A DNA stretch of 64,000 nucleotides from Candidatus Dojkabacteria bacterium (GTDB taxonomy: Bacteria > Patescibacteriota > Dojkabacteria > GCA-002793355): assembly GCA_030583825.1 (NCBI GenBank), contig CP129477.1, positions 446,308 to 510,307 on the forward strand, written 5' to 3'. Both the position numbers and the translations under genes were made by a program. Under the pieces are notes generated by a model. It was not told the origin of the DNA. It searched no databases and saw only the letters and a program-made list of their open reading frames with translations. Position 1 is the stretch's first letter, and each line of letters begins with the position of its first letter. Positions 20,598 to 44,865 of the stretch are shown in pieces.

Positions 20598-22022
20598 TTA
20601 TTGAAGAACAGCAAATGCACCAACTTTTGTGTTTATGATTGTTGTTGTTTCTCCGTTCACAACAGAAACCGAGACCAAGCCTTTGTTTTCAAGGGGGTAT
20701 TTTTGAGTTGCTTCCCGATCAGTAATATACGCGACGACGTTTGTTGCAGACGAAAAAAGTCCTCCATGAGCCAAGTCTGTTATCTTTTTAGATGAGTCTG
20801 CAGTTGCATAGTGAAGTGCTGTTTGTTTTGTTGTGGTATTAACGGTTGCGTAGATGTAGCCTATGTCAAAAACATTGTGAGCGAGATGAATTCGAACATC
20901 ATTATTAGCAATTTCTCTCGACTGTCTCAATGGAATATCAACTTGCATTACTTTTTTATCAGCAGTGTAAATATAGGCCTCGTCCGAAACAAAGGAACCT
21001 TCCAGTGCAGGGTAGGTATGTTTTGCAGTTTTGGAGCCAGCATCATCAAATATTGCAACAGTTTCATGGTTTGTAAGATCGTCGGCAAATGTTGTCACGT
21101 ACATTACGTATTTTCCTGATTTTGTGTATGAAAGCGTAAATCTATCCGTGAAAGTTTCTTCTCGTGGGGAAGTACTTGGATAAGTCATAAGCACTGTTTT
21201 CTGGCCATCAAAGGCAAAGTATCCTGCCACTGTTTCTCCAAATACGTCTAAAGCAAGAAATCCCATTCTTTCTCCATTTGGAGACCAATCGAGAGCAAGT
21301 TTTTGAACAAGCGGCAACGTATATTCCTGCCCGGTCGTTCTTTTTATCATGTTAAAGGTTCTTATTTTGCATTCCGACTCGCAGAAAGCATAGGTAATTT
21401 CCTCAGTATTTCTCCATGCAACTGCATGAATTTTCGAATATGCATCTAGCATTGGAACAACTTTTGCTTCTGCTGTGCCAGTTACAGAATTAGCATAGAT
21501 TCCATCTTCTTTAACATAAAGCACCGCAAGAGGTATTGTCCCGGAGGTATCTGTATTGTTTCCTGACGGAGCGGGAGTAGGAGTTACCGACGTCTCCTGG
21601 TTTACAGCACGCGAAAACATTCCCAGTTGAGTAATATCTACGCCAAGCTGCTTGAGGACGAATTGAACAAGGAAATATGCCGAAATAGCCACGATAAGAC
21701 CGATGATAACATTCATGATTGCGGATTGAGCTTCTTTTGTTTTGCCGGCATCGCCGCCACTTGTTATATACTTTAACCCTGCAAGAACGAGGTAAAACAC
21801 GGAAGCAATCACAACAATAATAAGAAGAAGGTCAAGAAAACTGCTAATGATTTCAAAAAACTCAATATTTTGCAGGTATTTGGTATTTTTTATGTCCGGG
21901 ATACTGAAATTTAACCCCGATTGTGCGTACATCATTAAGACATTGTAAGGGTTTTTGGGGATGGATGCAAAAAGGATAAAAAGAGAAAGTATTTGTTTCA
22001 GAAATACACCTTCTAGTTTCAC
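20598..22022 (-). CDS. TrbC/VirB2-like pilin module fused to PT linker and ~330-aa extracellular domain
   Basis: Residues ~60-130 (LLIIVVIASVFYLVLAGLKYITSGGDAGKTKEAQSAIMNVIIGLIVAISAYFLVQFVLKQLG) are near-identical in pattern to the pilin-like protein at 30137..30517; then TPTPAPSGNNTDTSGT linker and a large beta-rich domain. Confidence 0.55.
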   Translation of the reverse strand: MKLEGVFLKQILSLFILFASIPKNPYNVLMMYAQSGLNFSIPDIKNTKYLQNIEFFEIISSFLDLLLIIVVIASVFYLVLAGLKYITSGGDAGKTKEAQSAIMNVIIGLIVAISAYFLVQFVLKQLGVDITQLGMFSRAVNQETSVTPTPAPSGNNTDTSGTIPLAVLYVKEDGIYANSVTGTAEAKVVPMLDAYSKIHAVAWRNTEEITYAFCESECKIRTFNMIKRTTGQEYTLPLVQKLALDWSPNGERMGFLALDVFGETVAGYFAFDGQKTVLMTYPSTSPREETFTDRFTLSYTKSGKYVMYVTTFADDLTNHETVAIFDDAGSKTAKHTYPALEGSFVSDEAYIYTADKKVMQVDIPLRQSREIANNDVRIHLAHNVFDIGYIYATVNTTTKQTALHYATADSSKKITDLAHGGLFSSATNVVAYITDREATQKYPLENKGLVSVSVVNGETTTIINTKVGAFAVLQ

Positions 22023-22168
22023 TCATAAAAAGGTAGAGAGGGATGGCACTCCGTTACTGTCGCTTTTTATTGAAATTCCTATTGTAAAGCTCCAGAGCGA
22101 ACCTTTTCTTTTAGAAAGGTTACACTCCTAATATCTTTCCGCGCTAATCACCTTTCAGGTGACCACCA

Positions 22169-22258
22169 CGGAAAGAGAGGGATTCGAACCCTCGATACCC
22201 AAAATTTAGGTATAACGGTTTAGCAAACCGTCGCCTTCAGCCACTCGGCCACCTTTCC
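22169..22258 (-). tRNA. tRNA-Ser(GCU)
   Basis: Minus-strand cloverleaf: acceptor GGAAAGG/TCTTTCC, anticodon arm ACGGT-TTGCTAA-ACCGT (anticodon GCT), long variable arm, T-arm GAGGG-TTCGAAT-CCCTC, discriminator G. CCA not encoded. Confidence 0.85.
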
Positions 22259-22297
22259 AAGGGCAAGAAGCCCTTTCGGGCTTCTTAAAAAAACTTG

Positions 22298-22651
22298 TTA
22301 CTTCTTTGAAGCACTTTCAACCTGCTGTTCTGCCCAGTCTCCAATTACTGGAAGTTTCCACATTTCTCCCTGGAATGCTTTAATGACTCCAAGAATCCAA
22401 ACAACGAATACTGCCAATGGAACAATGCATGTCCATGACAACACTGCGTTTGCAATGAATGCTACGATTCCAAATGCCAATGACTGCCATGCATGAAACT
22501 GGATAAACTTGTCCTTTTTATAGTTATCCAAAACGATCAACACGATTGAGCTGATTGGGGCCAACAACCATGCGACAGCTGCAATGAGCTTTGTGTTCGA
22601 ATCGGAGGTTGCTACAACAGTTGCTTCTGTTGTTTTTGTTGTCTCATCCAT
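22298..22651 (-). CDS. small two/three-TM membrane protein (DUF4870-like)
   Basis: 117 aa; hydrophobic core with KDKFIQFHAWQSLAFGIVAFI motif. Confidence 0.4.
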   Translation of the reverse strand: MDETTKTTEATVVATSDSNTKLIAAVAWLLAPISSIVLIVLDNYKKDKFIQFHAWQSLAFGIVAFIANAVLSWTCIVPLAVFVVWILGVIKAFQGEMWKLPVIGDWAEQQVESASKK

Positions 22652-22799
22652 GATTAATGAAATAATAAAGTTATACTCGTTGCATTATATCATTAAAGAA
22701 TGAAATTGACGACAACATCGTGACGTACACAAAGACTTCCTGCATCACAAAACAAGAGAAATATAGAAAATTTCCTTCAGATGTTCGAAGAAGAGAAGA

Positions 22800-23150
22800 C
22801 TAGGTCGTTGGCAACGTGCCTGGCAAGTCTACATCGAAGACTCCAAGAATGAACCCCGCAATCGCGAATGCAGCAAGGACAACGATAAGTCCAATAATTG
22901 CGTTAATTATAAGTTGTTGTGCTGATTGAAGTTCACGAGGATCACCGCGAGACATGATAAATTTGTATCCACCGTAAATAATCATTCCTACGCCGACAAC
23001 GATAATAAGAGAAATTGCTGCAGTAAAAAGTCCTCGAACTGCTGCATCGCCACCACTAGGGCTAAGAAAACCTGCAGTTGGGCCAACTGTTCCAATAACA
23101 TCTACTGTATAACCAAAGGCTCGTGTAAGGATACTTCCCATCATGTTCAA
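22800..23150 (-). CDS. TrbC/VirB2-like pilin-family protein (tandem copy 3)
   Basis: Two hydrophobic helices flanking IYGGYKFIMSRGDPRELQSAQQLIINAIIGLIVV; same module as 23157, 23484, 30137, 30647 and 20598. Confidence 0.6.
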   Translation of the reverse strand: MNMMGSILTRAFGYTVDVIGTVGPTAGFLSPSGGDAAVRGLFTAAISLIIVVGVGMIIYGGYKFIMSRGDPRELQSAQQLIINAIIGLIVVLAAFAIAGFILGVFDVDLPGTLPTT

Positions 23151-23156
23151 CTCTTC

Positions 23157-23462
23157 TTATGTTATGGCATTTATAATAATCGCACGAATAACAAACGCAA
23201 ACAGTACTATTGCAATACCAATAACGGCATTAACGATAATACCTCGAGCTTGTTCTACTTTCTTTGGATCGCCCTGGCTCATCATGTAAGTATATCCGCC
23301 ATAAACAATCAATCCAACAAAAAGAATCGAAAGCAAAGGAAGAACAACGCCAAGAGCGTTGGTTACAAGATCACCGATTGTTCCTGGTGCTCCAGGAGCT
23401 GGAGTAATTTGGCTCAAATCTATAGTTGCGCCTGCGTTTAAACTTGGAAGACGATTTGTCAT
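23157..23462 (-). CDS. TrbC/VirB2-like pilin-family protein (tandem copy 2)
   Basis: LIVYGGYTYMMSQGDPKKVEQARGIIVNAVIGIAIVLFAF; 6-nt gap to next copy. Confidence 0.6.
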   Translation of the reverse strand: MTNRLPSLNAGATIDLSQITPAPGAPGTIGDLVTNALGVVLPLLSILFVGLIVYGGYTYMMSQGDPKKVEQARGIIVNAVIGIAIVLFAFVIRAIIINAIT

Positions 23463-23483
23463 GACCTATTATACAGAAAAGTC

Positions 23484-23909
23484 CTAGCTAATGCCAAGTG
23501 TGCTGAAAACCATGGAAATAATTGCTGTTGCGGTTAAAATCAGTCCAAAACCGAGTAAAGCATTCATTATTTGTTCTTTACCATCTTGAATCTTTTTTGA
23601 TTCTCCGCCACTCATCATAACTTTGTATGCACCAATAACAACAAGTACTAATGCAACGAGGGCACCAACAACGCCAGCTGCGGCTGCAATTTGTGTAACA
23701 AATCCAACACCACCGGTACTTGTATCAAAACAAATTCCAAAGTCGAATTCAATACCGCTACATCCACCGGCGGAAACTGTATATTGAGGAAGAGTCCGGC
23801 CTGTAATAGTTGAAACTAAGCCCGGAAGTGCCTGAGAAACCACTCTCCCCACTGTAGTAAATGATTCTGGCATACTTTGTATTATACCATTTGCTATCCC
23901 TATTTTCAT
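23484..23909 (-). CDS. TrbC/VirB2-like pilin-family protein (tandem copy 1, longer N-region)
   Basis: VIGAYKVMMSGGESKKIQDGKEQIMNALLGFGLILTATAI; 2-nt gap to upstream methyltransferase. Confidence 0.55.
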   Translation of the reverse strand: MKIGIANGIIQSMPESFTTVGRVVSQALPGLVSTITGRTLPQYTVSAGGCSGIEFDFGICFDTSTGGVGFVTQIAAAAGVVGALVALVLVVIGAYKVMMSGGESKKIQDGKEQIMNALLGFGLILTATAIISMVFSTLGIS

Positions 23910-23911
23910 TT

Positions 23912-24958
23912 CTAGAATGTTACTTCTTCTGGTTTAGGATCTCTCAAGTCGAAAATATCTTCTCTTACAAGAAATGTTTCCTTGCATTTTTCACACTGCA
24001 ATACATCCGGTTGAGAGTAAGTCATTCTCGCAGAACAATGCGGACATTGCAAGGTATCGTTAATAGCAAAAGATGCACCTGAAGCAGAAAGAATTCCCGG
24101 TTTTTCAAAGACAAACAGCAAGCTTGGAGTGATTCTTGTCCATGATAAAAGTGCTTGCGCAACTTTCTCTAAGCCGAGTAACAGTGATGTTGGAAATAAC
24201 TTTTTAACCATCGGCAGCCTAAAAAATGAGCAGGCAACGACTTCTTTAAGAGAAAATCCCGTACTTTTAGCAACTTCCACAATATGATCAGCTGTAAAAG
24301 AAAACATTATAGATTCTTGCCCCTCTTTAATTCCTTGCGATTCTGACGGATTATGCGCAACTCTGTGAGGATCATTTGCAAAGAATTCCGAAAGCTTTCC
24401 TTGGAACAATGCTTTGAAAAAGCCGAGTATGTGCTGCTTATGAGCAGCCTCAAGGATAAAAATGCCTCCGGGCTTTAGGATTCGGTACATTTCTTCCATC
24501 ATAATCTCCGGAGAGGCAATATGGTGGATTAAACGAACACTCATAAGCGTGTCAAAAGTATCATTTTGAAACGGTACTTTGTAGACATTCATGGCAACAA
24601 GATTCATTTTTTCTTTATACTTTTCTAAATCTTTTGCTGCATGTCGCAACTCAATCGTTGAATAATCTGAAATAACAAAGTGTTTAAATGTATCCCTATA
24701 GAGTGGAGAAAGTCGGCCGTATGCACCACCAACATCCATAATCACTTTATTTTCTTGATTTGGAGCATATTTTTGCAATAAGCGAGAAATACAATGAATT
24801 TCAGCAAGGTGCTCGTACTCTCGACCGGCCCAAAATGCATCGTAGGTGTAATCATTAAGTTCGTAGTTTGCAATAAAGTGTTTTATATTTCCACTCCCGA
24901 ATGAAGCAGAACTCTCTTGCTCAGGAGGATTTCCGTCGTTATTATTAGCGTTTGTCAT
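23912..24958 (-). CDS. class I SAM-dependent methyltransferase with C-terminal Cys4 zinc ribbon
   Basis: Motif I IMDVGGAYGRL, motif post-I/II consistent with MTase type 11; C-terminus CPHCSARM...CEKCKETF zinc-ribbon (Trm112-like). Overlaps upstream gene by 14 nt. Confidence 0.6.
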   Translation of the reverse strand: MTNANNNDGNPPEQESSASFGSGNIKHFIANYELNDYTYDAFWAGREYEHLAEIHCISRLLQKYAPNQENKVIMDVGGAYGRLSPLYRDTFKHFVISDYSTIELRHAAKDLEKYKEKMNLVAMNVYKVPFQNDTFDTLMSVRLIHHIASPEIMMEEMYRILKPGGIFILEAAHKQHILGFFKALFQGKLSEFFANDPHRVAHNPSESQGIKEGQESIMFSFTADHIVEVAKSTGFSLKEVVACSFFRLPMVKKLFPTSLLLGLEKVAQALLSWTRITPSLLFVFEKPGILSASGASFAINDTLQCPHCSARMTYSQPDVLQCEKCKETFLVREDIFDLRDPKPEEVTF

Positions 24959-26123
24959 TAGTTTTTAGCGTCACATATAAAATAATCAAAAAGACGAGTG
25001 CCCAGGCAATCACAACAAAGACAGTTTTCTGCGTTCCCTGAAGAAAAATAGCTAAACAGCCAAGCACTGCAGTGATAGTATATTCAAAAATAGCGATTTG
25101 AGGTTCATTTAGGCCCAATTTCATAAGCTTGTGATGGAAATGAGATCTATCACTGATAAGCATTAGCTGAAAGAGTGATTTTGGCTTGTAGTCAATAACG
25201 CGCTTAACCAAAACCCAGAACATATCAATAAGCGGAATAGCGAACACAATTAAGCTGATGGCAAATTTCGCATTACTGATAATTGCCAAAGTCGCAACAA
25301 TAAATCCAACGACCGTTTTTCCTGCAGACGCAGACATTATCTTTGCAGGGTAGAAGTTATACACAATGAACCCAAGCAACGATCCTGCCAGAGTAATGGA
25401 GAAGAGTGCCGATGCCGGTTGAGTAAACATAAAACTCACGACAAAGATGATAATAAGTGCGATAAATACATTCCCTTCCATAAGTGCGTCTGTTCCTCCC
25501 TGCCACTTAATCGCATTGATAAGCACAAGAATCCATAAGAATAAAAAGATGTCTCCCGGCAAACTGATACTGAGTAAAACGCCTCCAAATTGAGCAGTAA
25601 ACTCGCTCGCACGAATGATTAACGGCATTCCCGTAAATGGGTTTGTTAAAAAGTCCAAGTCAATTGGCGACAAAACAAAGAGAAACGCAGCAAGCATCTG
25701 AAACATAATCTGCGTTTTACCCGTAAGTTCGTATTTATCGTCAATGACACCCATTGCAAACAAAATAATGATGCCGAAAAACCAGAAAATGTAATTGTTT
25801 ACCTCTTCGGGAGAAATATTTATTGTCTTCGAGAGTAAAAGAGTGCTAATACTAATAACGATAAATGGGGTAATATATGCAATTCCTCCCCAATTTGCCA
25901 TCGGGTGCTTTTCTAAACGACGTCTTGCTGCGATAATTTTTGCCTCTAACGTTGTCGCACTGACTTTTTTGCTCGGCATCGTCTCAGGCAAACGCTTTAA
26001 ATGCTCAGAAGGAGGATACTGAATAACATCAAACATATTGGCAAGCTTTCCAACCCATGGAGTAAATAATACAGTTGCAATAAAAGAGAGTACAAAGATT
26101 GGGAGAAATGTTAGTAAATCCAT
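24945..26123 (-). CDS. MraY/WecA-family polyprenyl-phosphate sugar-1-phosphate transferase (WecA-like)
   Basis: ~10 TMs, GVIDDKYELTG (DDxxD), SDRSHFHHKLMKLG (WecA-type DRxHxHHxLM). The NxxNxxDGxDG and VFMGDxGS blocks look divergent (NAIKWQGGTDAL; IMSASAGKT). Confidence 0.6.
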   Translation of the reverse strand: MDLLTFLPIFVLSFIATVLFTPWVGKLANMFDVIQYPPSEHLKRLPETMPSKKVSATTLEAKIIAARRRLEKHPMANWGGIAYITPFIVISISTLLLSKTINISPEEVNNYIFWFFGIIILFAMGVIDDKYELTGKTQIMFQMLAAFLFVLSPIDLDFLTNPFTGMPLIIRASEFTAQFGGVLLSISLPGDIFLFLWILVLINAIKWQGGTDALMEGNVFIALIIIFVVSFMFTQPASALFSITLAGSLLGFIVYNFYPAKIMSASAGKTVVGFIVATLAIISNAKFAISLIVFAIPLIDMFWVLVKRVIDYKPKSLFQLMLISDRSHFHHKLMKLGLNEPQIAIFEYTITAVLGCLAIFLQGTQKTVFVVIAWALVFLIILYVTLKTNDKR

Positions 26124-26138
26124 AGTATTTCCGTCATA

Positions 26139-26621
26139 TTAAAGGCTCCATATCCAAACGCCTTGGATCATTATCTTCAAAACCAGAATATTTATCAAAA
26201 ACAAAATAAATAGTACGGCATCAACGATTTTTGTGCGCTGTAACGAAGAAATTTGGTAACAGATAAGTAAAAACACAAGGTTTACAGTAACGATCCCAAG
26301 AAGCATATATTGCATGACTTCCGCACCACCTGTGGCTAACTCGGTAAAACCGGCATAAAAAAATCCGGGAAACAAAAATATTTCTGGAACATGCTCTTGA
26401 ATTGAAAAGAATCCCCAAAACCTAACAACAATATACAACACCATACCAATGTTTATCCAAAGTGGGAGCTTTCCAAACAGAATCGCAAATGGAGAAAAGC
26501 GCATTTCAGATAAAGATTTTTTGAGTCGGATAACAAATTGAGACCACGGAGAAATAGAAACGCCTAATGACAATTGCTCTTCAGCTTCCGAACGGATCGT
26601 ATTGGGTGAATTTACCCCCAT
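26139..26621 (-). CDS. hypothetical membrane protein
   Basis: 160 aa, 3-4 TMs; 3-nt gap after dnaN stop. Confidence 0.4.
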   Translation of the reverse strand: MGVNSPNTIRSEAEEQLSLGVSISPWSQFVIRLKKSLSEMRFSPFAILFGKLPLWINIGMVLYIVVRFWGFFSIQEHVPEIFLFPGFFYAGFTELATGGAEVMQYMLLGIVTVNLVFLLICYQISSLQRTKIVDAVLFILFLINILVLKIMIQGVWIWSL

Positions 26622-26624
26622 GTT

Positions 26625-27758
26625 TTAATCGTCTAACTTAAGAGGCATCATCAAGTGCAGAAATGTTTCCATAGTTGGCTGATAAAACACACCCGCTGCA
26701 TTTTTATTTATTGCCTTCAAGATGACTGTATCATCTTCAATGTGAGAAAGAATATCCAATAAGAATTTCAACTGGAAAGCGATTCGTAATGGTTCTCCAT
26801 CCATTTTGACTGGCATTACTTCTTTTACTTCTCCTACTTCTGGAACATTTGCTTCCATTGTGAGTTGGCCTTTTTCAAATCCCATAATGACTCGCTGGCT
26901 GATTGCTGACTGTGCGAACACACCAACTCTTTTTAGAGAATCAATAAGCTTTTGTTTTTCGAGTGAAATTTCAATTTGATGGGCTGCTGGAATTGCCTGC
27001 TTATACTCTGGAAAATCTCCTTCGATAAGACGGGCATAAACCTGAACATCTCCATATTCAATGACACAGTAATTGCCGGTTGCAGAAAGCTTAATAATCA
27101 CATCTTCATTCTCTGCAGTAGAGGAGACAAATGCATCTTTCATAATTCTGCTTGCATGATCCAATGCTTCTGAGCTAATAACAATCTGCTTTCGCTGTGA
27201 TGCTGTTTTAATCGGTACAGAAATCTTTGACAATCGGAATGTATCGAGCGCAACCATAGTCACAAATCCTGCATCAACTTCAATATTTACACCTGTAAGA
27301 ATTGGACGAATATCGTCTTTTGCACAGGCGAAAATTGTTTTATCCACCATTGTGATGAATGTTTCTCGAGGAATATCACACAAAACTTCGAGATCATTGG
27401 TTTCAAAAAGAGGAAACTCTTCTGCATCGCGGGTAGAAAAAGACGCACTTCCTGACTGAGATGTAACAAACAGCGTGTTTTTATCTAAAAGAACCTCAAT
27501 AGATTCTTCTTTTGGAACTGTATTTATATACTGAGAAAAAAGTTTTGCATTAATTGTGACTTTACCTTCATCGTCTGCTGAAAGTGCCGTTGCTGCCGAA
27601 ATCTGAACATCGAGATCTGTTCCAATAACAGTTACTTTGTTCTTTTCGACATCAAGAAGAATATTGCTGAGAACCGGGAGGTTCGCCTTTGAACTTACTA
27701 CTTTACTAACAAGGTTAATGTAACTTGCGAATATTTCCGCATTGATTCTAAAGCGCAT
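26625..27758 (-). CDS. dnaN: DNA polymerase III beta sliding clamp
   Basis: 377 aa; MRFRINAEIFASYINLVSKVVSSKANLPVLSNILLDVEKNKVTVIGTDLDVQI is the classic DnaN N-terminus; three-domain length. Confidence 0.88.
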   Translation of the reverse strand: MRFRINAEIFASYINLVSKVVSSKANLPVLSNILLDVEKNKVTVIGTDLDVQISAATALSADDEGKVTINAKLFSQYINTVPKEESIEVLLDKNTLFVTSQSGSASFSTRDAEEFPLFETNDLEVLCDIPRETFITMVDKTIFACAKDDIRPILTGVNIEVDAGFVTMVALDTFRLSKISVPIKTASQRKQIVISSEALDHASRIMKDAFVSSTAENEDVIIKLSATGNYCVIEYGDVQVYARLIEGDFPEYKQAIPAAHQIEISLEKQKLIDSLKRVGVFAQSAISQRVIMGFEKGQLTMEANVPEVGEVKEVMPVKMDGEPLRIAFQLKFLLDILSHIEDDTVILKAINKNAAGVFYQPTMETFLHLMMPLKLDD

Positions 27759-28366
27759 ATTCTCATCCTTAATCTAAATTACTATTGAGTAATTGTATCA
27801 CACTTATCCCTTTCTTTTGTTCTTAAGTTATTCATTATTTAATTGTTTCTTTTTTTAAGATGAAAGATAAATGAGCTACCCACATCTTAGTGTTATATAT
27901 CTATTTATAAAAATAGAAGTATTAATAGAGAGTGTGGGTAAGTGGAAGAGAGTAAAGAAAAAGTCCAGATCGCTGAATTAAAATAAACTATTTTTTCTGT
28001 CGGTAATTTGTGGATAAGTGTGGAGGAGCACTTTTAGTATTGTGGGGTTTGCTCTGAATGGTTCTTTGGAATTTTGTAAAAGATTGCTCTCTCTACCGGA
28101 ATTCCCGCAATAAACATAAAAAGTATGCTTATCAACAAGTTGTGAATACTTTACCAATAGGTTTCCATATCACTGCTTGTGTTATACACATGTTATCCAC
28201 AAAATGTAAAAGAGTCCCCAAGTTATGAAGAAAACATTCAACTTTTCTTTTTGCGCAAATTTGTACTATAGGAAAAGCATTTTATATATGCCACTAAATC
28301 TGAAGTATTTTTTCTGATACGTAAGGAAAAATTTTTGCGTGAAATCTTTTTTGCAATAGAGAAAGT
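27759..28366. promoter_or_regulatory. candidate chromosomal origin (oriC): DnaA-box cluster plus AT-rich unwinding tract upstream of dnaN
   Basis: 608-bp non-coding, very AT-rich (27781-27930). DnaA-box-like 9-mers: TGTGGGTAA 27933-27941, TGTGGATAA 28009-28017 (perfect), TTATCAACA 28127-28135, TTATACACA 28182-28190, TTATCCACA 28193-28201 (perfect), in both orientations. Confidence 0.5.
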
Positions 28367-30034
28367 CTACTTTTCCTCTGACTCTACCTTTTTCACAAGG
28401 GGTGTCACCTCTTTTAATGTGACACTTTTTGGTAATCCTGACCAATTCCATGCTACTTCATTTTGCTCACCAAATGTAATAGAAAGCTTTTCTGTTACTG
28501 AAGGAATAAATGGCCCTATCAAAGTGCGAAGAGCATACACAACCGCGACGGCTTGAGATACTTTATCTTTTGCCTCTGCATTATCTGTAATTTTCCATGG
28601 CTCATGCTCGTTTAAGTACTGGTTTCCAAATTGCGCAAGAGCCATAACCTCCTGAATCGCGCTTGCAAAGGAAACGTTTTCAAGTAGTGTCCCTACTTTC
28701 TCAAATGTTCGGACTATTTTTTGCTCGACAGCTGGATCAATAGCCGTAAATTCAAAGCTATCGCCAAATCTCTTTTGAGCATACGAAAGAACTCGGTAAA
28801 CAAAGTTTCCGAACGTTGCGACAAGCTCATTGTTATTAAGAGTAATAAGGTCTTTCCACTCAAAGTCTATGTCGTGGTTTTCAGGCGCGTAGCGAACAAA
28901 GAAGTAGCGTACAAGCTCAGGCGAGAATGTGTCTATTAATTCCTGTGCTGTAATGAATGTTCCTTTGCTTTTAGACATTTTTTCTCCGCGGATATTCAGA
29001 AACATGTTTGCGACAACATTGTAAGGAAGCTTTAATTCACGGTTTGTTTCTTCTCCTGGCAAAGGAGATTGCAATTCACTACCTGTATATTTCGAGTTAT
29101 ATGCAATAAGCTGTGCTGGCCAAAATAATGAATGAAATGGAATATTATCTTTTGCAATAAAGTAGTAGTGTTCGGCAGTGTCATCTTTCCAAAAGCTTTC
29201 CCATGCGCTTGGTGTTCCATTATTCTTTGCCCATTCAATTGCTGCTGATAAATATCCAATAACGGCTTCAAACCACACGTAGACAACTTTGTTTGTAAAT
29301 CCTTCAATTGGTACAGGAACTCCCCAGTCAATATCTCGTGACATTGCTCGAGGTTCAAGTCCTTCTTTTAGCCATGCTTTGCTGAATTCAAGGGTATTCT
29401 TTCTCCAATATGTTTTATCTTTGATATATGACTCTAGCGGTTTCTGTAATTTTGAGAGGTCAAAAAATAAATGTTCTGATTTTCTCATAACAGGCGTTGT
29501 ACCCGTAAGTTTGCTAACTGGATCAATAAGCTCTTCTGGAGTGAGAACGTGACCACATGAATCGCATTGGTCTCCTCTTGCTGGAATGTATCCACAGTAT
29601 GGACATTTACCTTCGATGTAACGGTCAACCAAGAATCTTTGGGCTTTTTCGTCATAAAACTGTTCAGTCTCTTTGCGGAGCAAGTAGCCTTTTTCGTCGA
29701 GGATTCGAATAAAATTTTGAGTGACTTCTTTGTGGTTTTCTGTGTGGGTATCAGTAAAGAGATCAAATGATACTTGTAACGTTTTAAAAATCTCCAGAAA
29801 GTTTTTGTGATTTTCTCTCCAAAACTCTTCGATAGGAATGCCTTTTTCTTCAGCCTTAACTGTAATTGGAGTTCCATGAGTATCGCTTCCAGAAACCATA
29901 AGAACATCATTTCCTTTCATTCTGTGAAATCGTGCAAACACATCGCATACAATATTTTGGCCGGCAAGATGGCCTATGTGCATTGGCCCGTTACTGTATG
30001 GCCACGACACTCCGATAAGAATTTTCTTTTTCAT
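28367..30034 (-). CDS. metG: methionine--tRNA ligase
   Basis: HIGH (PMHIGHLAG), KMSKS (KMSKSKG), Zn knuckle CPYCGY...CDSCG; 555 aa. Confidence 0.92.
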   Translation of the reverse strand: MKKKILIGVSWPYSNGPMHIGHLAGQNIVCDVFARFHRMKGNDVLMVSGSDTHGTPITVKAEEKGIPIEEFWRENHKNFLEIFKTLQVSFDLFTDTHTENHKEVTQNFIRILDEKGYLLRKETEQFYDEKAQRFLVDRYIEGKCPYCGYIPARGDQCDSCGHVLTPEELIDPVSKLTGTTPVMRKSEHLFFDLSKLQKPLESYIKDKTYWRKNTLEFSKAWLKEGLEPRAMSRDIDWGVPVPIEGFTNKVVYVWFEAVIGYLSAAIEWAKNNGTPSAWESFWKDDTAEHYYFIAKDNIPFHSLFWPAQLIAYNSKYTGSELQSPLPGEETNRELKLPYNVVANMFLNIRGEKMSKSKGTFITAQELIDTFSPELVRYFFVRYAPENHDIDFEWKDLITLNNNELVATFGNFVYRVLSYAQKRFGDSFEFTAIDPAVEQKIVRTFEKVGTLLENVSFASAIQEVMALAQFGNQYLNEHEPWKITDNAEAKDKVSQAVAVVYALRTLIGPFIPSVTEKLSITFGEQNEVAWNWSGLPKSVTLKEVTPLVKKVESEEK

Positions 30035-30136
30035 AGTTCTTGGTATTTTACCACCGGATTGGACAACCCGGCAATTGACCGTCTTACTCTAATCATATAT
30101 AATCAAATTAAGATAATTTATCTTTGTCATTTGATT

Positions 30137-30517
30137 ATGAAAAAATTTCTCGCAACAGTAGGAACAGCAATTGCCTATGTCAGCATGATCCCATCTACTT
30201 ATGCTGCGACAAACTGGGCACCAACGCAAATTGGAGACGCAAGTGTTGGCGAAATTATTCAAAATGTTTTGAACATTCTTTTGATTATTGTTGTTATTGC
30301 AGCAGTTATCTATATTACTCTTGCAGGTTTGAAATATGTAACCAGCCAGGGTGATGCAGGAAAAGCAAAAGAAGCACAAGCAGCAATCACTAACGCAATT
30401 ATTGGTTTAGTTGTTGCATTCGCAGCATACTTTGTTGTTACTTTCGTCCTTGCACAGCTCGGATTGAATGTAGAAGACTTCGATGTCGAATCAGTAGCTC
30501 GCGCACTGATTGCATAG
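30137..30517 (+). CDS. TrbC/VirB2-like pilin-family protein with signal peptide
   Basis: ATG at 30137 (MKKFLATVGTAIAYVSMIPSTYA|ATN). IAAVIYITLAGLKYVTSQGDAGKAKEAQAAITNAIIGLVVAFAAYF. The ORF-track 29807 start is an antisense extension into metG. Confidence 0.65.
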   Translation: MKKFLATVGTAIAYVSMIPSTYAATNWAPTQIGDASVGEIIQNVLNILLIIVVIAAVIYITLAGLKYVTSQGDAGKAKEAQAAITNAIIGLVVAFAAYFVVTFVLAQLGLNVEDFDVESVARALIA

Positions 30518-30544
30518 AATTCTTTAATTAGATTAGCATTTATT

Positions 30545-30576
30545 AAGAGGCTTTCTTCGGAGAGCCTCTTTTTTTA
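30545..30576 (+). terminator. rho-independent terminator
   Basis: AAGAGGCT-ttcttcggag-AGCCTCTT followed by TTTTTTT directly after the pilin-like gene. Confidence 0.6.
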
Positions 30577-30646
30577 TAAATTTTTCACCGCGATTGTATT
30601 GTGCGGCGATAATGTGTAATAAAAAAAGACGTGCTATAATTTCGCT

Positions 30647-30982
30647 ATGATAAATGCAATTGCCAAGAATCTTCCAACACTTCTCGCAATTAATGCGGGC
30701 CAAGTTATGCAGGGTACCCAAGAACCTCCATCACTTGCAGGCATAATTGCTTTGTTTATTACCCTTTTTAATACATTTGCTTTTACACTTGCACCGATTG
30801 TTATCATCGTTATGATTGTGTATTCAGGAGCCCAGCGAATGATGGGTGGCGATAATCCTGGCAAAGTAGCAGAAGCAAATGCTCGTCTTATGTGGACAGT
30901 CATTGGTGCAGTGTTGCTTTACTTAAGCGTGCTGCTTGTAAACCTTGTTGCCAGCACAGTTGGTGTCGCAACTCCTTTTTAG
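30647..30982 (+). CDS. TrbC/VirB2-like pilin-family protein
   Basis: IVMIVYSGAQRMMGGDNPGKVAEANARLMWTVIGAVLLYLSVLLV; same two-helix module. Confidence 0.55.
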   Translation: MINAIAKNLPTLLAINAGQVMQGTQEPPSLAGIIALFITLFNTFAFTLAPIVIIVMIVYSGAQRMMGGDNPGKVAEANARLMWTVIGAVLLYLSVLLVNLVASTVGVATPF

Positions 30983-31261: not shown

Positions 31262-33517
31262 ATGAATGTATTGACTGCCCGTCGTACAACATTGTCTTTT
31301 CTCCTGAGCATTATTATATCCGGTATCATTATTGCTTCTATTCTTGTATTACACGGAGCATTTTCTAATACTGCATTTGCGCAAACTGAAGCAGAGATCC
31401 AGGCAGAGAAAAATCAAAAACAGAAAGAACTAAATGGTGTCATTGCAGAAATTAACTCGATTGTTGCATCACGTAACTCTCTTAGCACGAAAATTAAAGA
31501 GCTTCAGGCAGAAAAAACAAAGCTTGAAAACCTTGTGGCTGAAATGAATAAAGACCTCGCAGAAGCAGCAGAACAACTAAAACAGCAGGAAAAAGATCTT
31601 GAAACACTTTCTCAACAGTATGCTCTAAACCACGCTCTCTACTATTTGGAAACTAAGAAAAATGCGGGTGTAGTATTGTTTGAATCACGTGATTTGCGTG
31701 ATTTTCTCGACAGAATGCTATATTTTTCGGTACAAGACAAAGTGATTGCCACTCAAAAAGAATATATCGTTGCAAAGCAGGATGGACTCAAAAACCAAAA
31801 AGGAAATATTGAAGAAGAACAAAAAAAGCTTCAGGAAACAATCGAAGATGTAAATCTGAAACTTTCACAGCTATATTCTGAGCAGGAAGCATTGAATGCA
31901 AAATATAGTCAGTCATTGTCGGCAAGAAGAATGCTAACAAGCGATCTTTCAAATCTCTCCAAAAAAGAGCAGGAAATTCTTAACCAAAAAGCGCAGTCAA
32001 CTGCACCTTCGGGGAACTCAGGCTCATCGGGATCTTCCGGGTCATCGAGTGGGAGTGGAACAACAACAAATCCCGGCACAGTTATTACAACAAGAGGAAT
32101 TGATATTTTTGTCGGCAGCGAGCGAATTGCCAGCACAGATGCTGAAGTAAAAGTTCGAGCAAAAAATAACGGAAGTGTCCTTCTTAACAAAAGCTGTGGA
32201 GGATGTATGGCTCCGGAAATTGCTTACCAGGGATTTCTTGTATTTGATAAATCAAAGCGCCGCACATTCACTGGGGTAGAAGGAACAAAAACGGTAAACG
32301 TAATTAATGACATTAGCGTTGAACAGTATCTTCGAGGACTTGGAGAAATGCCTGCATACTGGGGAAGAAATGAAAAAGGTGGAATCGAAGCACTAAAAGC
32401 TCAGGTGGTTGCAGCACGAACATATGCCTATCGGAAAATGGAGAACTATAAAGGCATTGGCTTTGATTTATATGACACGACTGACGATCAAAACTATGTT
32501 GGTGTGAATAAAGTCGCAACCGGCGATGGTCAGCATTGGGATAGAGCAATCAATGAAACAATTAATATGGCAATCGTTGCAGGAGGAGTTCCTATTTCAG
32601 CATTTTATTCATCTAGTGCAGGTGGACACACAATTGCAACTGAAGAATCTTCAAGCTTTGGTAGTGTTACTTCTTACGCAAAAGCTGTTCCGGACAGATA
32701 CCAAACAAGCGAAGGAAACTGGAGAGACTATGGAGAAAATGTTCCAGATGAGCCAGGAACAGCAGAAACCTCATACTGGCTTCCTTCAGGCAACCGTGCG
32801 CTGAGTCCTGCAGAAGTTACTGAACTTTTGAATGTCGCTATTTTTCTTGATCCAGAAGCAGATGGAACACTTATTTCTGCTAGTCAGCGATACCGTGTGA
32901 CAGACCCTTCAAGCTCAGGATATCTGAATGCTCAGGCTCTTGCTGACCATCTTGGGCCAAATTCAGTACAAAGCAAAGTAGGAACATTAACGTCGGTAAA
33001 ACATGTCTATAATACTGGTGACCAGACTATTCAGCAGGGAACTAAAAATACTCGTTATTTGGAACTAACTGGAGATAAAGGGACAATGCGAATTAGCGGT
33101 CAGGCGTTTAGAACAGGGTACAACTTCCGATCTCCGGGAACAAATGTTATTTGGTCGTCTGCGAATTTACCGCTGTACGATGTCGTTCAGAAAGCAAATT
33201 GTAATGTCGGAGGGACTAATCATTCTCCATGTTGGGAATTTTGGTCACGCGGATATGGACACCGAGTAGGAATGAGCCAGTATGGCGCATATGGAAGAGC
33301 TCGCGCAGGACAGGACTACAGAACAATCCTGAAAGCTTACTATACTAACGTAGATATAGTACAATACTCAATCGGAAGGAATGTAAAAGTTGCAATTACG
33401 AAAGGTGGAAGCACTCAGTCATATATGAAATCTTCTCAGGAGATTGAAATTTATGAAGGAGGAAACCTTATCAGAACAGTTCCTGCCAATACGACAATTA
33501 AAATTGCTTACAACTAA
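31262..33517 (+). CDS. SpoIID/LytB-domain protein with N-terminal TM and coiled coil
   Basis: VEQYLRGLGEMPAYWGRNEKGGIEALKAQVVAARTYAYRKM...DLYDTTDDQNYVG and SRGYGHRVGMSQYGAYGRA match SpoIID/LytB motifs; residues 40-240 heptad-rich; Ser/Gly linker. Confidence 0.65.
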   Translation: MNVLTARRTTLSFLLSIIISGIIIASILVLHGAFSNTAFAQTEAEIQAEKNQKQKELNGVIAEINSIVASRNSLSTKIKELQAEKTKLENLVAEMNKDLAEAAEQLKQQEKDLETLSQQYALNHALYYLETKKNAGVVLFESRDLRDFLDRMLYFSVQDKVIATQKEYIVAKQDGLKNQKGNIEEEQKKLQETIEDVNLKLSQLYSEQEALNAKYSQSLSARRMLTSDLSNLSKKEQEILNQKAQSTAPSGNSGSSGSSGSSSGSGTTTNPGTVITTRGIDIFVGSERIASTDAEVKVRAKNNGSVLLNKSCGGCMAPEIAYQGFLVFDKSKRRTFTGVEGTKTVNVINDISVEQYLRGLGEMPAYWGRNEKGGIEALKAQVVAARTYAYRKMENYKGIGFDLYDTTDDQNYVGVNKVATGDGQHWDRAINETINMAIVAGGVPISAFYSSSAGGHTIATEESSSFGSVTSYAKAVPDRYQTSEGNWRDYGENVPDEPGTAETSYWLPSGNRALSPAEVTELLNVAIFLDPEADGTLISASQRYRVTDPSSSGYLNAQALADHLGPNSVQSKVGTLTSVKHVYNTGDQTIQQGTKNTRYLELTGDKGTMRISGQAFRTGYNFRSPGTNVIWSSANLPLYDVVQKANCNVGGTNHSPCWEFWSRGYGHRVGMSQYGAYGRARAGQDYRTILKAYYTNVDIVQYSIGRNVKVAITKGGSTQSYMKSSQEIEIYEGGNLIRTVPANTTIKIAYN

Positions 33518-34132
33518 GTGCCGGATATCAAACAGGGACAATCGTCCTTCGAGAAGCTTAAAAGACTTTCTCAAATCAGCCTTTTTCGGTCTATTAAAGT
33601 TTATCCAAAAGTCGCGCGCTTTGATGGCCAAGATACTCACGAAACAATTATTCTCTTTCTTAGACAACATCCTGTTGTTCTTGTTCCCGCAGTCTTTCGC
33701 TCGTTAATGATTTTCGCAATCGGATTGATTATATCTCTTGGAATTGGCGCAATCGCCGATAGCTCAGGCCTAAAAATGGGAGCATCAATTTTTGTTTTGA
33801 TGACTTTTGTTGTTGTCGTTGCGGTCACCAATATGTTTTTCTCATTTTTGCAGTGGTACTATACAGTCTTTATTATTACGACAACTCGATTGATTGACAT
33901 TGATTTCCTCACACTTTTTGATGCAAGCATGAGCAGTACTCTTTTGGAAGTCATTCAAGACGTATCGAAATCCTCACCGGGATTTTTCTCAACACTGTTT
34001 GATATGGGCTCGATTATGATTCAGACAGCGGGTGAAAATAACAAGTTTGAAATTTCAAATGTTCCTCGACCACGTGATGTTCTCGATATTCTCATGGACT
34101 TAATTGAAAACCTTAAGAAAAATGATTCCTAG
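33518..34132 (+). CDS. membrane protein with bacterial PH (bPH_2/DUF304-like) architecture
   Basis: 204 aa; two TMs (LMIFAIGLIISLGIGAI; IFVLMTFVVVVAVTNMFF) then soluble beta-rich domain; family call tentative. Confidence 0.4.
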   Translation: MPDIKQGQSSFEKLKRLSQISLFRSIKVYPKVARFDGQDTHETIILFLRQHPVVLVPAVFRSLMIFAIGLIISLGIGAIADSSGLKMGASIFVLMTFVVVVAVTNMFFSFLQWYYTVFIITTTRLIDIDFLTLFDASMSSTLLEVIQDVSKSSPGFFSTLFDMGSIMIQTAGENNKFEISNVPRPRDVLDILMDLIENLKKNDS

Positions 34133-34380
34133 TAACGGTTTAGGATTTCCTCAAATTGCATTTGATATGTCTTCAGTTTCGGCGACGGCATTGAAAGCGC
34201 TGATATTTATCTTTCTGATAATGTATGTCTTTTTCTGCCTGTTTCTATATTTGCGTGTGAGGATTTTGTCACTGACAATGCAGACTGAAAATTCTCCTGT
34301 CACCAGCGTACTTGCTTTGCTCAACTTTGTTTTTGCTGTGGGGTATGTTTTTCTAATGTCATTACTGCTACTATTGTAGT

Positions 34381-38919: not shown

Positions 38920-38928
38920 TTCAGGCTT

Positions 38929-41524: not shown

Positions 41525-43984
41525 ATGATATACTTTGAGCAGATGACTGCCTCTTATTTAGTCGCACAACTGGGAACAAACGTATCACGATCGGCTGGGA
41601 CTTCAGGCAATTCCGACATATTTGTCACAATCATTTTTGTTATTATTTTCGTTTTAGCACTGCTTATTGCTGGTTTATTAACCTATTTATTGGCAAAAAA
41701 CGTACAAAACAAAGATCGTGAGGAAAAATCCTTACACTACACCATTTTTATTGTCAGAATGGCTCATGGAAATGAATCGCAGATTAAAGCAGCAGAGCAA
41801 ATGTTCAGCAGTTTGTATGGAATTTACGAAAAGAAGGGCATTATTGATCAAATGACGAAGGCCGACGAGGGGCTTTCTTTTGAAATTATTGCGTATCCAG
41901 AGCATATTGGCTTTTACGTATATGTCCCAGAAAGATTTGCACAACTTGCAGAAAAACAAATTCTTGGAGCATATCAAGATGCCGAAGTATTGCAGGTTCC
42001 AGAGCCAAACTTTTTTAAGGAGGGAGCGTCAGTTGTGAGTGGAACATTCGAAATTACCGACGAGCAATATCTTCCTGTAAAAACATATGCAGACTATGAA
42101 GAAAAAGCCGATCCTCTGACTTCAATCACAGGAGCATTCGCAAATATGATTGACGGTGAAGGTGGAGCATTGCAAGTGTTAATAACTCCGGCAGGTTCAG
42201 ACTGGTCATCGAGTGGGCAGAAATATATTCAAAAGATTAATGAGCATAATAACGATCCTGAAAAAAAGAATAAAATCACTGTTCCACAGGAGAAAATCCA
42301 GGCAATTCAGAAAAAGACAGCAAAAGTAGGATTCAAAGTAAATATTCGTGCCGTAATGTGTGCAGATACTCAAGACATGGCAATGGCACGATTAAATACA
42401 CTTGCAGGGTCAATTTCACAGCTTGCAAATCCGGGTCTAAACGGGTTCAAGTTCAAAAAGGTCGAAGGAAACGGGCTTCGTGAGTTTATGAACGACTTTG
42501 TCTATCGCCGAGTGTCTCCAACCAAAACGGTTTTGAATGTTGAAGAGCTTGCGACGATTTATCACTTTCCAAACCAGAATACGCAAACACCGAATATTGA
42601 ATGGCTTATTGCACGAAAAGCTGCTCCTCCTCCAAACTTACCGAAAGCTGGGTTGTGGGTTGGTGCATCTGCATACCGAGGCATTAATCGTGATGTATTT
42701 ATGGGTGATGACGACCGTCGCCGTCACACATACATTATTGGACAAACCGGTACAGGTAAATCATGGTTCTTAGCAAATATGATTTTGCAAGACATTTATA
42801 TGGGCAAAGGACTTGCATTGCTTGATCCTCACGGTGCAACAGTTGAGCAAGTTCTTGAGCGCATTCCTCCTGAAAGAGCCGAAGATGTCATTTATTTTAA
42901 CCCTGCAGATGTACAACGTCCGTTTGGAATGAACTATATAGAATTCCGCAACGAATACGAAAAGCACGAAATTGTGAACGGATTTCTTGGCTTGATGAAA
43001 AAGATGTTCGATCCGCACGATCAGGGTATTGTAGGCCCGCGATTTGAGCGTGCTGTACGAAATGCCATGCTTACGGTTATGGCAGAGCAGGGAAATACAT
43101 TGGTTGAAGTGTTGCGGTGTATCGCAGACGAGCAATTTGCTTTGTCATTCATGGATAAAATTGATGACGACGAAGTCCGAAACTATTGGCTGAAAGAAAT
43201 GGCCTCGACCGAGAAAAAAGATAAATCTGAAATTCTTGGATGGCTTACGTCAAAGTTTGACCGTTTTGTTACAAATATTTTAATTCGCCACATTATTGGG
43301 CAGAGTGAGTCATCGTTTAACTTCCGCCAGGTGATGGATAATAAGAAAATTTTGCTCGTAAACTTGTCGAAAGGTTTGATCGGCGAAGAAAACGCTCAAT
43401 TCTTGGGCTTGCTAGTTATTCCAAAGATTTTACGCGCAGCGCTCAGCCGCGAAGATATTCATGAATCCGAGCGTCAAGACTTTTACTTGTACGTTGACGA
43501 GTTTCAAAACTTTGCGACAGAAGACTTTGCGCAGATTTTGTCTGAAGCACGTAAATACCGCCTGAATCTTATAGTCGCGAACCAGTATATTCAGCAGATG
43601 TCTGAAAAGATCCGCAATGCGGTCTTTGGTAACGTTGGTACATTGGTCAGTTTCCGCGTTGGCGCAGGTGATGCAGAGTATCTTTCCAAAGAATTCGCCC
43701 CGGTATTTGAGGATCAGGACTTGATTAAGCTCGAAAACGCAAATGTGTACATAAAAACATTGATTAATGGTGTTGCAATGCCGCCATTCTCGATGAGCAC
43801 ATTTTATAACATTAATGAGCGCTATCCAAAGCACGAAAGAGTAGGCGATTTGATTAAGCAGTTGTCACGAACAAGATATGGCCGTGATGAGCAATATGTA
43901 AAAGAAGCTATCAAAATGAGGGCAGCCCGACCGGAAGTAGCAAAGCCTGCCCAACCGGCAATGAAACCTCCGCTTGTTTTCTAA
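41525..43984 (+). CDS. VirD4/TrwB/TraD-like type IV coupling protein (membrane-anchored FtsK-HerA-superfamily ATPase)
   Basis: N-terminal TM; HTYIIGQTGTGKSWFLANMILQDIYMGKGLALLDPHGATVEQ...VIYFNPADVQRPFGMNYIEFRNEYE parallels TrwB GATGTGKS...IVDPNGD...ILNPYDQRT...FFNEIRNDYD; Walker B YLYVDEFQNF; RKYRLNLIVANQYIQQ (RK...Q sensor). SD GGGGGAAAT before ATG. Confidence 0.6.
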   Translation: MIYFEQMTASYLVAQLGTNVSRSAGTSGNSDIFVTIIFVIIFVLALLIAGLLTYLLAKNVQNKDREEKSLHYTIFIVRMAHGNESQIKAAEQMFSSLYGIYEKKGIIDQMTKADEGLSFEIIAYPEHIGFYVYVPERFAQLAEKQILGAYQDAEVLQVPEPNFFKEGASVVSGTFEITDEQYLPVKTYADYEEKADPLTSITGAFANMIDGEGGALQVLITPAGSDWSSSGQKYIQKINEHNNDPEKKNKITVPQEKIQAIQKKTAKVGFKVNIRAVMCADTQDMAMARLNTLAGSISQLANPGLNGFKFKKVEGNGLREFMNDFVYRRVSPTKTVLNVEELATIYHFPNQNTQTPNIEWLIARKAAPPPNLPKAGLWVGASAYRGINRDVFMGDDDRRRHTYIIGQTGTGKSWFLANMILQDIYMGKGLALLDPHGATVEQVLERIPPERAEDVIYFNPADVQRPFGMNYIEFRNEYEKHEIVNGFLGLMKKMFDPHDQGIVGPRFERAVRNAMLTVMAEQGNTLVEVLRCIADEQFALSFMDKIDDDEVRNYWLKEMASTEKKDKSEILGWLTSKFDRFVTNILIRHIIGQSESSFNFRQVMDNKKILLVNLSKGLIGEENAQFLGLLVIPKILRAALSREDIHESERQDFYLYVDEFQNFATEDFAQILSEARKYRLNLIVANQYIQQMSEKIRNAVFGNVGTLVSFRVGAGDAEYLSKEFAPVFEDQDLIKLENANVYIKTLINGVAMPPFSMSTFYNINERYPKHERVGDLIKQLSRTRYGRDEQYVKEAIKMRAARPEVAKPAQPAMKPPLVF

Positions 43985-44826: not shown

Positions 44827-44865
44827 CTATCTTGTGTTTTTATCGAATTTAGGACTATAATTGTC

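Follow-up and report, generated by a model that had tools for sequence, protein, structure and literature searches.

Six pilin-family genes around the probable replication origin of a Dojkabacteria chromosome, one with a predicted beta-propeller fusion

Arrays of genes encoding small VirB2-like pilins have been described in the Patescibacteria, and provide the closest counterpart to the subject of this analysis, a group of six pilin-family genes (p1 to p6) found around the probable replication origin (oriC) in a stretch of chromosome from Candidatus Dojkabacteria bacterium (a metagenome-assembled genome; contig CP129477.1, positions 446,308 to 510,307). The whole 64-kb stretch is referred to here as the window, and its own numbering is used throughout. 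In a survey of 3,035 Patescibacteria genomes using the models PF18895 and PF04956, VirB2-like pilins were detected in 1,948 VirB4-positive assemblies, and 441 arrays of 2-11 pilin genes were reported, with a mean identity of 25% and a maximum of 54% (Quinonero-Coronel et al. 2025, Microb Genom, PMC12102498). In the same survey, genes for a type IV secretion system (T4SS) often lie near dnaN, dnaA and ksgA, relaxases are nearly absent, and each genome encodes about two homologues of VirD4-like type IV coupling proteins (T4CPs), mostly distant from virB4. At least two of the five Dojkabacteria rows in its Table S1 are marked VirB4-positive. A predicted pilin series also occurs inside the essential T4SS-like cluster SEML1_0006-0019 of Southlakia epibionticum ML1, from which relaxase and coupling proteins are missing; Gram-positive T4SSs are normally without pili (Wang et al. 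2023, Cell, PMC10633639). A 2025 review (PMC12857230) characterizes the six pilins of S. epibionticum, which are essential, as 'structurally conserved but sequence-divergent'.

By the published definition of an array (at least two pilin genes in tandem or one non-pilin gene apart, on a Patescibacteria chromosome), the genes in the window form one. Like the arrays of the survey, which has Dojkabacteria in its dataset, they are detected by PF18895, are tandem or nearly so, and are chromosomal, close to dnaN and the origin and unaccompanied by a relaxase. Their number and identities (six genes, mean 25%, maximum 56%) compare with survey values of 2-11 genes, 25% and 54%. The locus thus adds no new kind of system, such arrays having been published for this phylum between 2023 and 2025. 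It differs from the surveyed arrays in being split 1 + 3 + 2, interspersed with housekeeping genes to either side of oriC, in that no virB4 is recognised within the 64 kb, in the one-to-one orthology that can be shown for its members, and in a fusion of a pilin to a beta-propeller that is absent from the paper. Two elements were not found described: this fusion, and the stable one-to-one orthology of every paralog around oriC. The resemblance to S. epibionticum is similar in extent. Each organism is a monoderm ultrasmall epibiont with six VirB2-like pilins that diverge in sequence but are conserved in structure, and with a system presumed to be non-conjugative. However, S. epibionticum belongs to the Saccharimonadia, its pilins are encoded inside a cluster with VirB4 and VirB6, and its essentiality data are experimental, whereas the window is known from sequence alone.

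A preliminary description of this DNA had reported six open reading frames (ORFs), on both strands, sharing one TrbC/VirB2-like two-helix module, and all six were recovered where it had placed them. Each passes the Pfam model PF18895 (T4SS_pilin), with scores of 33.9-48.9 bits against a gathering cut-off of 26.6, and the alignments cover 59-70 of the 71 model positions (starting at 3-14, ending at 67-71), the polar loop motif included. A hidden Markov model (HMM) of the six modules, applied with filters off to the window's six-frame ORFs down to a length of 40 amino acids (aa), recovers p1-p6 only (E 1e-28 to 1e-34), with the next match at E = 0.056. Six is the complete pilin count for the window, far beyond chance. 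Pairwise module identity is 17-35%, with a mean of 25%, except between p1 and p5, which are 55.6% identical. In each protein, two hydrophobic helices of about 30 residues flank a polar K/R/D/E loop, as judged by hydropathy and, for p5 and p1, by AlphaFold2 (AF2) models. In the NCBI annotation p1 and p5 are named 'pilin', and p2 and p3 'hypothetical protein' (QY314_02300 and QY314_02305).

All six proteins also align nearly end to end with NF045849, the NCBIfam model for the Mbov_0395 pilin-like protein (E 4.5e-10 to 9.3e-5). The scores, 22.0-39.1 bits, are all under the 40-bit equivalog cut-off, which p3 misses narrowly at 39.1 bits, and they indicate a significant relationship rather than equivalogs. 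This protein, from an integrative and conjugative element (ICE) of Mycoplasma with an MPF-FATA-type (mating pair formation) system, is the closest curated relative of the six pilins outside the Candidate Phyla Radiation (CPR). It is similar in its short 'pilin-like' model of 80 positions and in belonging to the T4SS of a wall-less monoderm, but it is encoded by a mobile conjugative element, whereas the window locus is chromosomal and immobile. The kinship bears on a published question, namely whether these pilins came with a FATA-type T4SS or were co-opted from diderm systems.

The connection to the classical TrbC/VirB2 proteins is indirect only, running through homologues that match both PF18895 and PF04956. 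Agrobacterium tumefaciens VirB2 and RP4 TrbC are likewise small proteins with a leader, two hydrophobic helices and a short charged loop; by contrast, the host of the window is a monoderm without VirB5, B7, B9 or B10, and only p5 has a signal peptide. The TrbC/VirB2-like label of the preliminary description holds in that PF18895 is a T4SS-pilin family and that a precomputed match to PF04956 (TrbC/VirB2) is present on about 15-20% of the database homologues of the module as well; a direct match of the six to PF04956 did not bear out.

It might also be that the six are unrelated small proteins with two transmembrane (TM) helices, holin-like or of a DUF family, which match the pilin model through hydrophobic composition alone. 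Short hydrophobic proteins do yield false HMM matches, many sub-threshold membrane-protein matches were seen in the Pfam scan, and the Foldseek search of the hairpin was uninformative. This reading is nonetheless extremely improbable: all six proteins pass a curated cut-off over most of a model that includes the polar loop motif, the most conserved part of the module is that loop rather than the hydrophobic helices, and the independent NF045849 model matches all of them. A holin or unrelated DUF assignment, which the preliminary description had named as the outcome that would overturn it, was not obtained. The best non-pilin Pfam matches of the six proteins are all under their own cut-offs, PHROGs gives a single match to a family of unknown function (E = 0.0057), and BFVD gives none at E <= 0.001. 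No pilin/N_methyl Pfam family matches any of the six, a class III leader of the type IV PilA-like form G|F/M-T/S-L-I/L/V-E is absent (by regular expression in p1-p5, by eye in p6), and a tblastn search of p5 against the PLSDB plasmids returned no match.

Conservation within the module was assessed in an alignment of 21 pilins from four genomes, the 22nd extracted sequence, a non-pilin protein of 356 aa at the p1 position of one relative, having been dropped. The most conserved region is the inter-helix loop with its flanks, ..G.KY..S.GD..K...A...I.NA.IG.., at 39% identity between paralogs and 67% between orthologues, and the least conserved are the N- and C-terminal tails, at 12-18% and 39-46%, respectively. 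The motif given earlier for this loop is a fair loose consensus. In a set of 21 aligned homologues, only the G of '..IIG' is invariant. In solved pili of the VirB2/TraA type, the loop forms the lining of the lumen, and the termini are turned to the outside. A conserved loop with variable termini is the pattern expected of a VirB2-type tube, and the alignment is compatible with such an arrangement.

The six genes differ in architecture. On the minus strand, p1 (20598..21935) encodes 445 aa and combines the pilin module (PF18895 40.5 bits) with a C-terminal domain predicted to be a beta-propeller; its parts are the hairpin at ~21648-21893, a disordered Thr/Pro-rich linker at ~21534-21644 and the propeller, with seven predicted blades, at ~20601-21524. 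Also on the minus strand are p2 (22800..23150, 116 aa, 35.8 bits), p3 (23157..23462, 101 aa, 35.0 bits) and p4 (23484..23909, 141 aa, 33.9 bits), the last with a 65-aa N-terminal extension; neither p2 nor p3 has a signal peptide, and all three have orthologues in the related metagenomic contigs L006, L007 and L009. On the plus strand, p5 (30137..30517, 126 aa) has the highest PF18895 score, 48.9 bits, and p6 (30647..30982, 111 aa, 38.1 bits) is the most divergent copy, with orthologues in L006 (56% identical), L007 and L009. The limits reported earlier exist as ORF coordinates, with two amendments. In NCBI and Logan, p2 starts two codons later, making a protein of 114 aa. The longest ORF of p1 reaches a GTG at 22022, and the NCBI start is the ATG at 21935; the latter is probably correct, since the L006 orthologue shows no conservation of the 29 extra codons upstream. 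The possibility that the long GTG start gives p1 a signal peptide was rejected for the same reason.

A classical Sec signal peptide (MKK...TYA|A) is found in p5 only, and p5 homologues keep the n-h-c form MKK...A-x-A; in p1-p4 and p6 the N-terminal tail is hydrophilic, 22-65 residues long and devoid of an h-region. The AF2 model of p5 has an N-terminal signal-peptide helix followed by a hairpin of helices 37-68 and 74-107, with block-mean predicted local distance difference test (pLDDT) values of 86-96 over residues 41-100. Since p5 is the sole copy with a Sec signal peptide and is also the best conserved, at 83% identity to its L006 orthologue, it is a candidate for the major subunit, a role that is suggested rather than firmly indicated by these features. 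A promoter-like, sigma-70-like site upstream of p5 (TTGACC-17-TATAAT, 30075-30103, plus strand) and a terminator-like hairpin downstream of it (30545-30570, plus strand, an 11-bp stem with a T-run) scored highest of their respective kinds when 14.5 kb were scanned, but the total counts in that scan equal chance. These bracketing signals fit a highly expressed monocistronic major pilin, and are weak evidence for one.

The pilin genes are arranged as a p4-p3-p2 tandem and a p5-p6 tandem, with p1 separated from p2 by one coding sequence and one tRNA gene. The genes said earlier to flank them, dnaN (26625-27758), metG (28367-30034) and tRNA-Ser (22168-22259), were confirmed. The spacer between dnaN and metG (27759..28366, 608 bp) contains five DnaA-box-like sites at 27933-28201, two of which are perfect (TTATCCACA), and is the probable oriC. 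The same cluster occurs in the orthologous spacers of L006 (3753-4020) and L007 (7891, 8083). The cumulative GC-skew minimum lies at ~30-32 kb, and the gene strand switches at 30035-30136, between metG and p5. On the basis of the DnaA-box cluster, the skew minimum and the orientation flip, the pilin genes bracket a probable origin. The dnaA gene is not adjacent to dnaN at this site.

Relatives of the locus (L001, L006-L010 and L012) are metagenomic contigs found by exact-protein look-ups; a scan of GTDB representatives with DnaN gave no confirmed relative. The JGI metagenome contig L006 is perfectly collinear with the window and has a one-to-one positional orthologue for all six pilins, with identities of 60% for p1, 76% for p2, 74% for p3, 72% for p4, 83% for p5 and 56% for p6, neighbouring genes being 64-94% identical. 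In the more distant L007/L008 and L009/L010, whose p5 is 57-61% identical, p2-p6 are present at the same places and the block from the SpoIID gene to the T4CP-like gene downstream of p6 is also kept. The order of the pilin genes with housekeeping genes is kept in five related metagenomic genomes. Orthologues are 56-83% identical and paralogs 17-35%, and orthologue identity exceeds paralog identity in every segment of the module. Nonsynonymous divergence (dN, Nei-Gojobori) between orthologues is 0.11-0.37 for the pilins and 0.04-0.33 for their neighbours. Synonymous sites are saturated (pS 0.5-0.8), so that it can only be stated that dN is far below synonymous divergence (dS), and the ratio of the two is at most ~0.25 on these saturated sites. 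Because dN is so far below dS, purifying selection with no hypervariability is indicated by the sequences. No DNA repeats, cassettes, inverted repeats or invertible segments shared by the copies were found, and no direct repeats flank the region. The paralogs are ancient, individually maintained and architecturally distinct.

These observations bear on two kinds of diversification that had been suggested for the family, antigenic and functional. It may be supposed that the copies are interchangeable surface-subunit variants that evade a host or phage through antigenic or phase variation, as has been proposed for the VirB2 arrays of Bartonella and Anaplasma and raised in the Patescibacteria survey (PMC12102498). 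The paralogs are highly divergent (mean 25%), variability is greatest in the termini, where exposure would be expected, and the propeller of p1 evolves faster than its neighbours. However, one-to-one positional orthologues occur in up to four other lineages at identities far above those between paralogs, dN/dS is low even allowing for saturated dS, the copies have no DNA cassettes in common, long repeats and invertible elements are lacking, and the copies differ from one another by a signal peptide, an N-terminal extension or a propeller fusion. The antigenic reading is largely refuted and is now very unlikely, while functional diversification fits the stable orthologues. Taken together, stable one-to-one orthology, low dN and the lack of DNA repeats point to old, specialised subunits rather than to antigenic variation or a mobile island. 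Individually conserved paralogs at fixed positions around oriC argue in the same direction.

A remnant of a conjugative element, either an ICE or a plasmid, integrated near the origin is another conceivable source of T4SS-type pilins, particularly as a VirD4/TraD-like coupling ATPase is present and the tRNA-Ser gene adjoins p1. The ATPase, T4CP-like and of the VirD4/TraD family (41525..43984, plus strand, 819 aa), lies 10.5 kb downstream of p6, and its position is conserved: in L007 and L009 too it is found two genes away from smpB. It matches PF02534 (1.4e-10) and also PF10412 and PF12696 in Pfam, and TraD (50 bits), the CD1115 VirD4-like model (4e-9) and VirB4 (14 bits) in NCBIfam; its PDB matches are DotL and TrwB. 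Alignments by hhalign to VirD4 (Atu) and VirB4 were shallow and uninformative, and the T4CP assignment is based on the Pfam and NCBIfam matches. The N-terminal region of ~390 aa, which has a TM helix, is unusually long, and relatives carry PF26449 (DUF8128) there. Despite this ATPase, descent from a conjugative element is highly improbable. Neither a relaxase nor an integrase was recognised by Pfam or NCBIfam in the window or the 10 kb upstream, and no VirB4 was recognised in the window. The G+C content is uniform, at 0.36-0.45, no direct repeats flank the region, and the pilin genes are interspersed with dnaN, metG, dnaG and smpB in a gene order that diverged genomes share. The window is ordinary CPR chromosome, encoding MurJ, FtsK, KsgA, an Nramp transporter, a TagA/WecG-family glycosyltransferase, DnaG, NifU, DnaN, MetG and SmpB, along with an ABC-2 transporter, enzymes of peptidoglycan metabolism and several very large proteins that may be located on the surface. 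The earlier view that this is not a conjugative island therefore agrees with the missing relaxase, integrase and VirB4, the uniform G+C and the synteny in five relatives.

The explanation that best accounts for these data, to which a probability of roughly 60% is assigned, is that the six proteins are the pilin set of a chromosomal, non-conjugative T4SS-like apparatus, assembled by VirB4 into a pilus or conduit for host interaction. Each product would be a two-helix hairpin in the membrane, with its loop cytoplasmic while in the membrane and luminal once in a filament, and with the variable tails directed outward. In this scheme, p5 would be the major subunit, p2, p3, p4 and p6 minor or specialised subunits, and p1 a duplicate of p5 that has gained a fast-evolving beta-propeller and may present a binding domain on the structure or at its tip. 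The hairpins would be pulled out of the membrane by a VirB4-type ATPase, encoded in another part of the genome, which would build from them a pilus or a short conduit towards a host cell, and the apparatus would serve an epibiotic lifestyle rather than DNA transfer. The p4-p3-p2 genes appear to share a transcript with dnaN, and p5-p6 head a conserved block of possible envelope genes. The T4SS-like system of Patescibacteria is essential in the sole species tested, has no relaxase and has shown no visible pilus.

Several observations weigh against this explanation. A direct link to solved VirB2, TraA or TrbC pilins was not found by sequence, profile or fold. None of the six proteins matches PF04956 at E <= 1, and when the family alignment is compared by hhalign with A. 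tumefaciens VirB2 (from pTiC58) the probability is 1.6% (E = 0.032). Profile searches of the PDB return only SecY and MacB noise, whether started from the Dojkabacteria alignment or from aligned sequences that match both PF18895 and PF04956, and Foldseek finds no significant match of the hairpin to solved conjugative pilins, a result that is uninformative. Five of the six proteins lack a recognisable signal peptide. Neither VirB4, VirB6, PrgI/VirB3 nor TrsD was recognised by Pfam or NCBIfam among the large ORFs of the window and the 10 kb upstream. The promoter-like and terminator-like signals of p5 are not conserved, and in L007 and L009 the p5-p6 gap is only 9-19 nt. Finally, the pilus itself is still hypothetical, none having been seen for any Patescibacterial T4SS (PMC12857230).

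It may also be that the proteins are homologues of T4SS pilins that never polymerise, and are instead hairpin subunits of the membrane, parts of a translocon or wall-spanning channel or, in the case of p1, an anchor for the propeller. MPF-FATA (Gram-positive-type) T4SSs are generally without pili, and no pilus of a Patescibacterial T4SS has been seen; five of the six proteins have no cleavable signal peptide, and there is no link in fold or sequence to solved pilus subunits. In addition, 22 of the 25 relatives of the p1 propeller have no detected pilin module, and most of those listed look TM-anchored. This is the main rival, and is regarded as a serious one, albeit rather unlikely. The pattern of a conserved loop and variable termini fits a VirB2-type filament, though a membrane complex is also compatible with it; that a genome of ~1.09 Mb retains six distinct paralogs speaks for a function beyond anchoring; and the family, which is both curated and described in the literature as pilins, is essential in S. 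epibionticum. The filament-forming pilin set remains the preferred reading.

The fusion protein p1 is the most unusual member of that set. In its AF2 model, helices at residues 15-58 and 63-96 are followed by a linker (98-134) with pLDDT below 50 and an all-beta C-terminal domain (138-445) of ~28 strands with pLDDT ~90. Foldseek matches the beta domain in the PDB to TolB, to the propeller of prolyl-oligopeptidase (prolyl-endopeptidase) and to tricorn, with E ~1e-10 and a probability of 1.00; on the basis of this model, the domain is a seven-bladed beta-propeller of the TolB-like/PD40 type. It has no Pfam match, and its relatives give weak matches to DPPIV_N. These relatives are few: an exhaustive HMMER search of 1.84 billion representatives found only 25. 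The pilin module is undetected in 22 of them, being carried only by the cluster of p1 itself (P0002) and by P0019, and most of the relatives without the module among those listed show an N-terminal hydrophobic stretch resembling a single TM anchor. With such a plain anchor usual in the propeller family, the hairpin of p1 might be an anchor only, a further point against the assembly of p1 into a pilus. All of the 120 best pilin homologues listed are at most 261 aa long. Since few propeller relatives carry the module and none of these 120 homologues is longer, the fusion is rare.

The module of p1 is closest to that of p5 (56%), and p1 probably arose from a p5 duplicate for this reason. The fusion is kept in L012, whose DnaG is 51% identical, in the same p1-DUF6992-NifU-DnaG-WecG context. 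In L007, the corresponding slot beside the DUF4870 gene holds an unrelated, soluble-looking 356-aa protein (647-1717, minus strand). Given this replacement and the presence of p1 in the window, L006 and L012, the fusion is lineage-restricted. From the nearer to the farther orthologue, identity falls from 57% to 21% for the propeller, from 78% to 54% for the p1 pilin module and from 79% to 51% for DnaG. The propeller thus appears to diverge faster than either the pilin module or DnaG, as expected for an exposed binding domain, with the caveat that the neighbouring DUF6992 protein diverges similarly fast.

It is possible, if doubtful, that p1 is a new kind of T4SS-pilus adhesin, placed at the tip or sparsely along a filament of p5 and four minor pilins and acting as a host-specific contact device. 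If this were true, the pilin 'arrays' of Patescibacteria would represent a fixed system of major, minor and adhesin subunits rather than repertoires of variants. The p1 fusion, found in one lineage, is a concrete candidate for a host-recognition component. A possible analogy is provided by PilY1/PilC of type IV pili, in which a beta-propeller is likewise placed on a filament system and implicated in adhesion, as is proposed here for p1. PilY1 differs in belonging to another filament superfamily; it is not itself a pilin and is held in place by minor pilins, whereas in p1 pilin and propeller are covalently fused.

Upstream of p4-p3-p2, on the minus strand (23912..27758), are dnaN and genes encoding a 160-aa membrane protein, a GT4 protein of the WecA/MraY family and a methyltransferase. 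The genes from dnaN to p2 are spaced by -14 to 21 nt, in the same order in L006, L007 and L009; as the gaps are so short, dnaN through p4-p3-p2 are probably one operon. The methyltransferase has a C-terminal zinc ribbon, and a glycosyltransferase of the TagA/WecG family is encoded nearby (15814-17154, minus strand). That glycan synthesis is connected with the pilins is only a guess. The gene that adjoins p2 (22298..22651, minus strand) encodes a small DUF4870-like membrane protein (PF09685 E = 2.9e-4, under the cut-off), and its position is kept in L001, L006, L007 and L009; it is a conserved neighbour and not a pilin.

Downstream of p5-p6, on the plus strand, are genes encoding a SpoIID/LytB protein with a PcsB-like coiled-coil N-terminus (31262-33517), a bPH-like protein with two TM helices (33518-34132), a DUF5657 protein (34104-34379) and a 962-aa TM protein (34381-37269). 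The order of this block is kept in L001, L006, L007/L008 and L009/L010. It could be that these are envelope or T4SS-accessory genes, a role with the pilins being suggested by conserved linkage only. The 962-aa protein has an acidic low-complexity centre, one TM helix apparent from its sequence and a weak ScyE-like match at its C-terminus. Between smpB and the T4CP-like gene, an ATP-binding cassette (ABC) ATPase gene and two ABC-2 permease genes (37951-40460, plus strand) are a lineage-specific insertion, since L007/L008 and L009/L010 have no such genes at this place.

Large proteins are predicted at 3694-7665 (plus strand, 1323 aa), 56284-59802 (plus strand, 1172 aa) and 59817-63068 (minus strand, 1083 aa). 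The first two have fn3/purple-acid-phosphatase-N or CarboxypepD_reg domains and hydrophobic N-terminal stretches, and could serve an epibiont as surface proteins or adhesins; the third has no family match. A scan with Rfam found nothing beyond two tRNAs. The second of these, identified also by ARAGORN, is a tRNA-Ile at 44755-44827 (plus strand, Rfam tRNA 70.6 bits) with the anticodon UAU. Bacteria do not commonly have this anticodon, and usually decode AUA with a CAU tRNA modified by lysidine.

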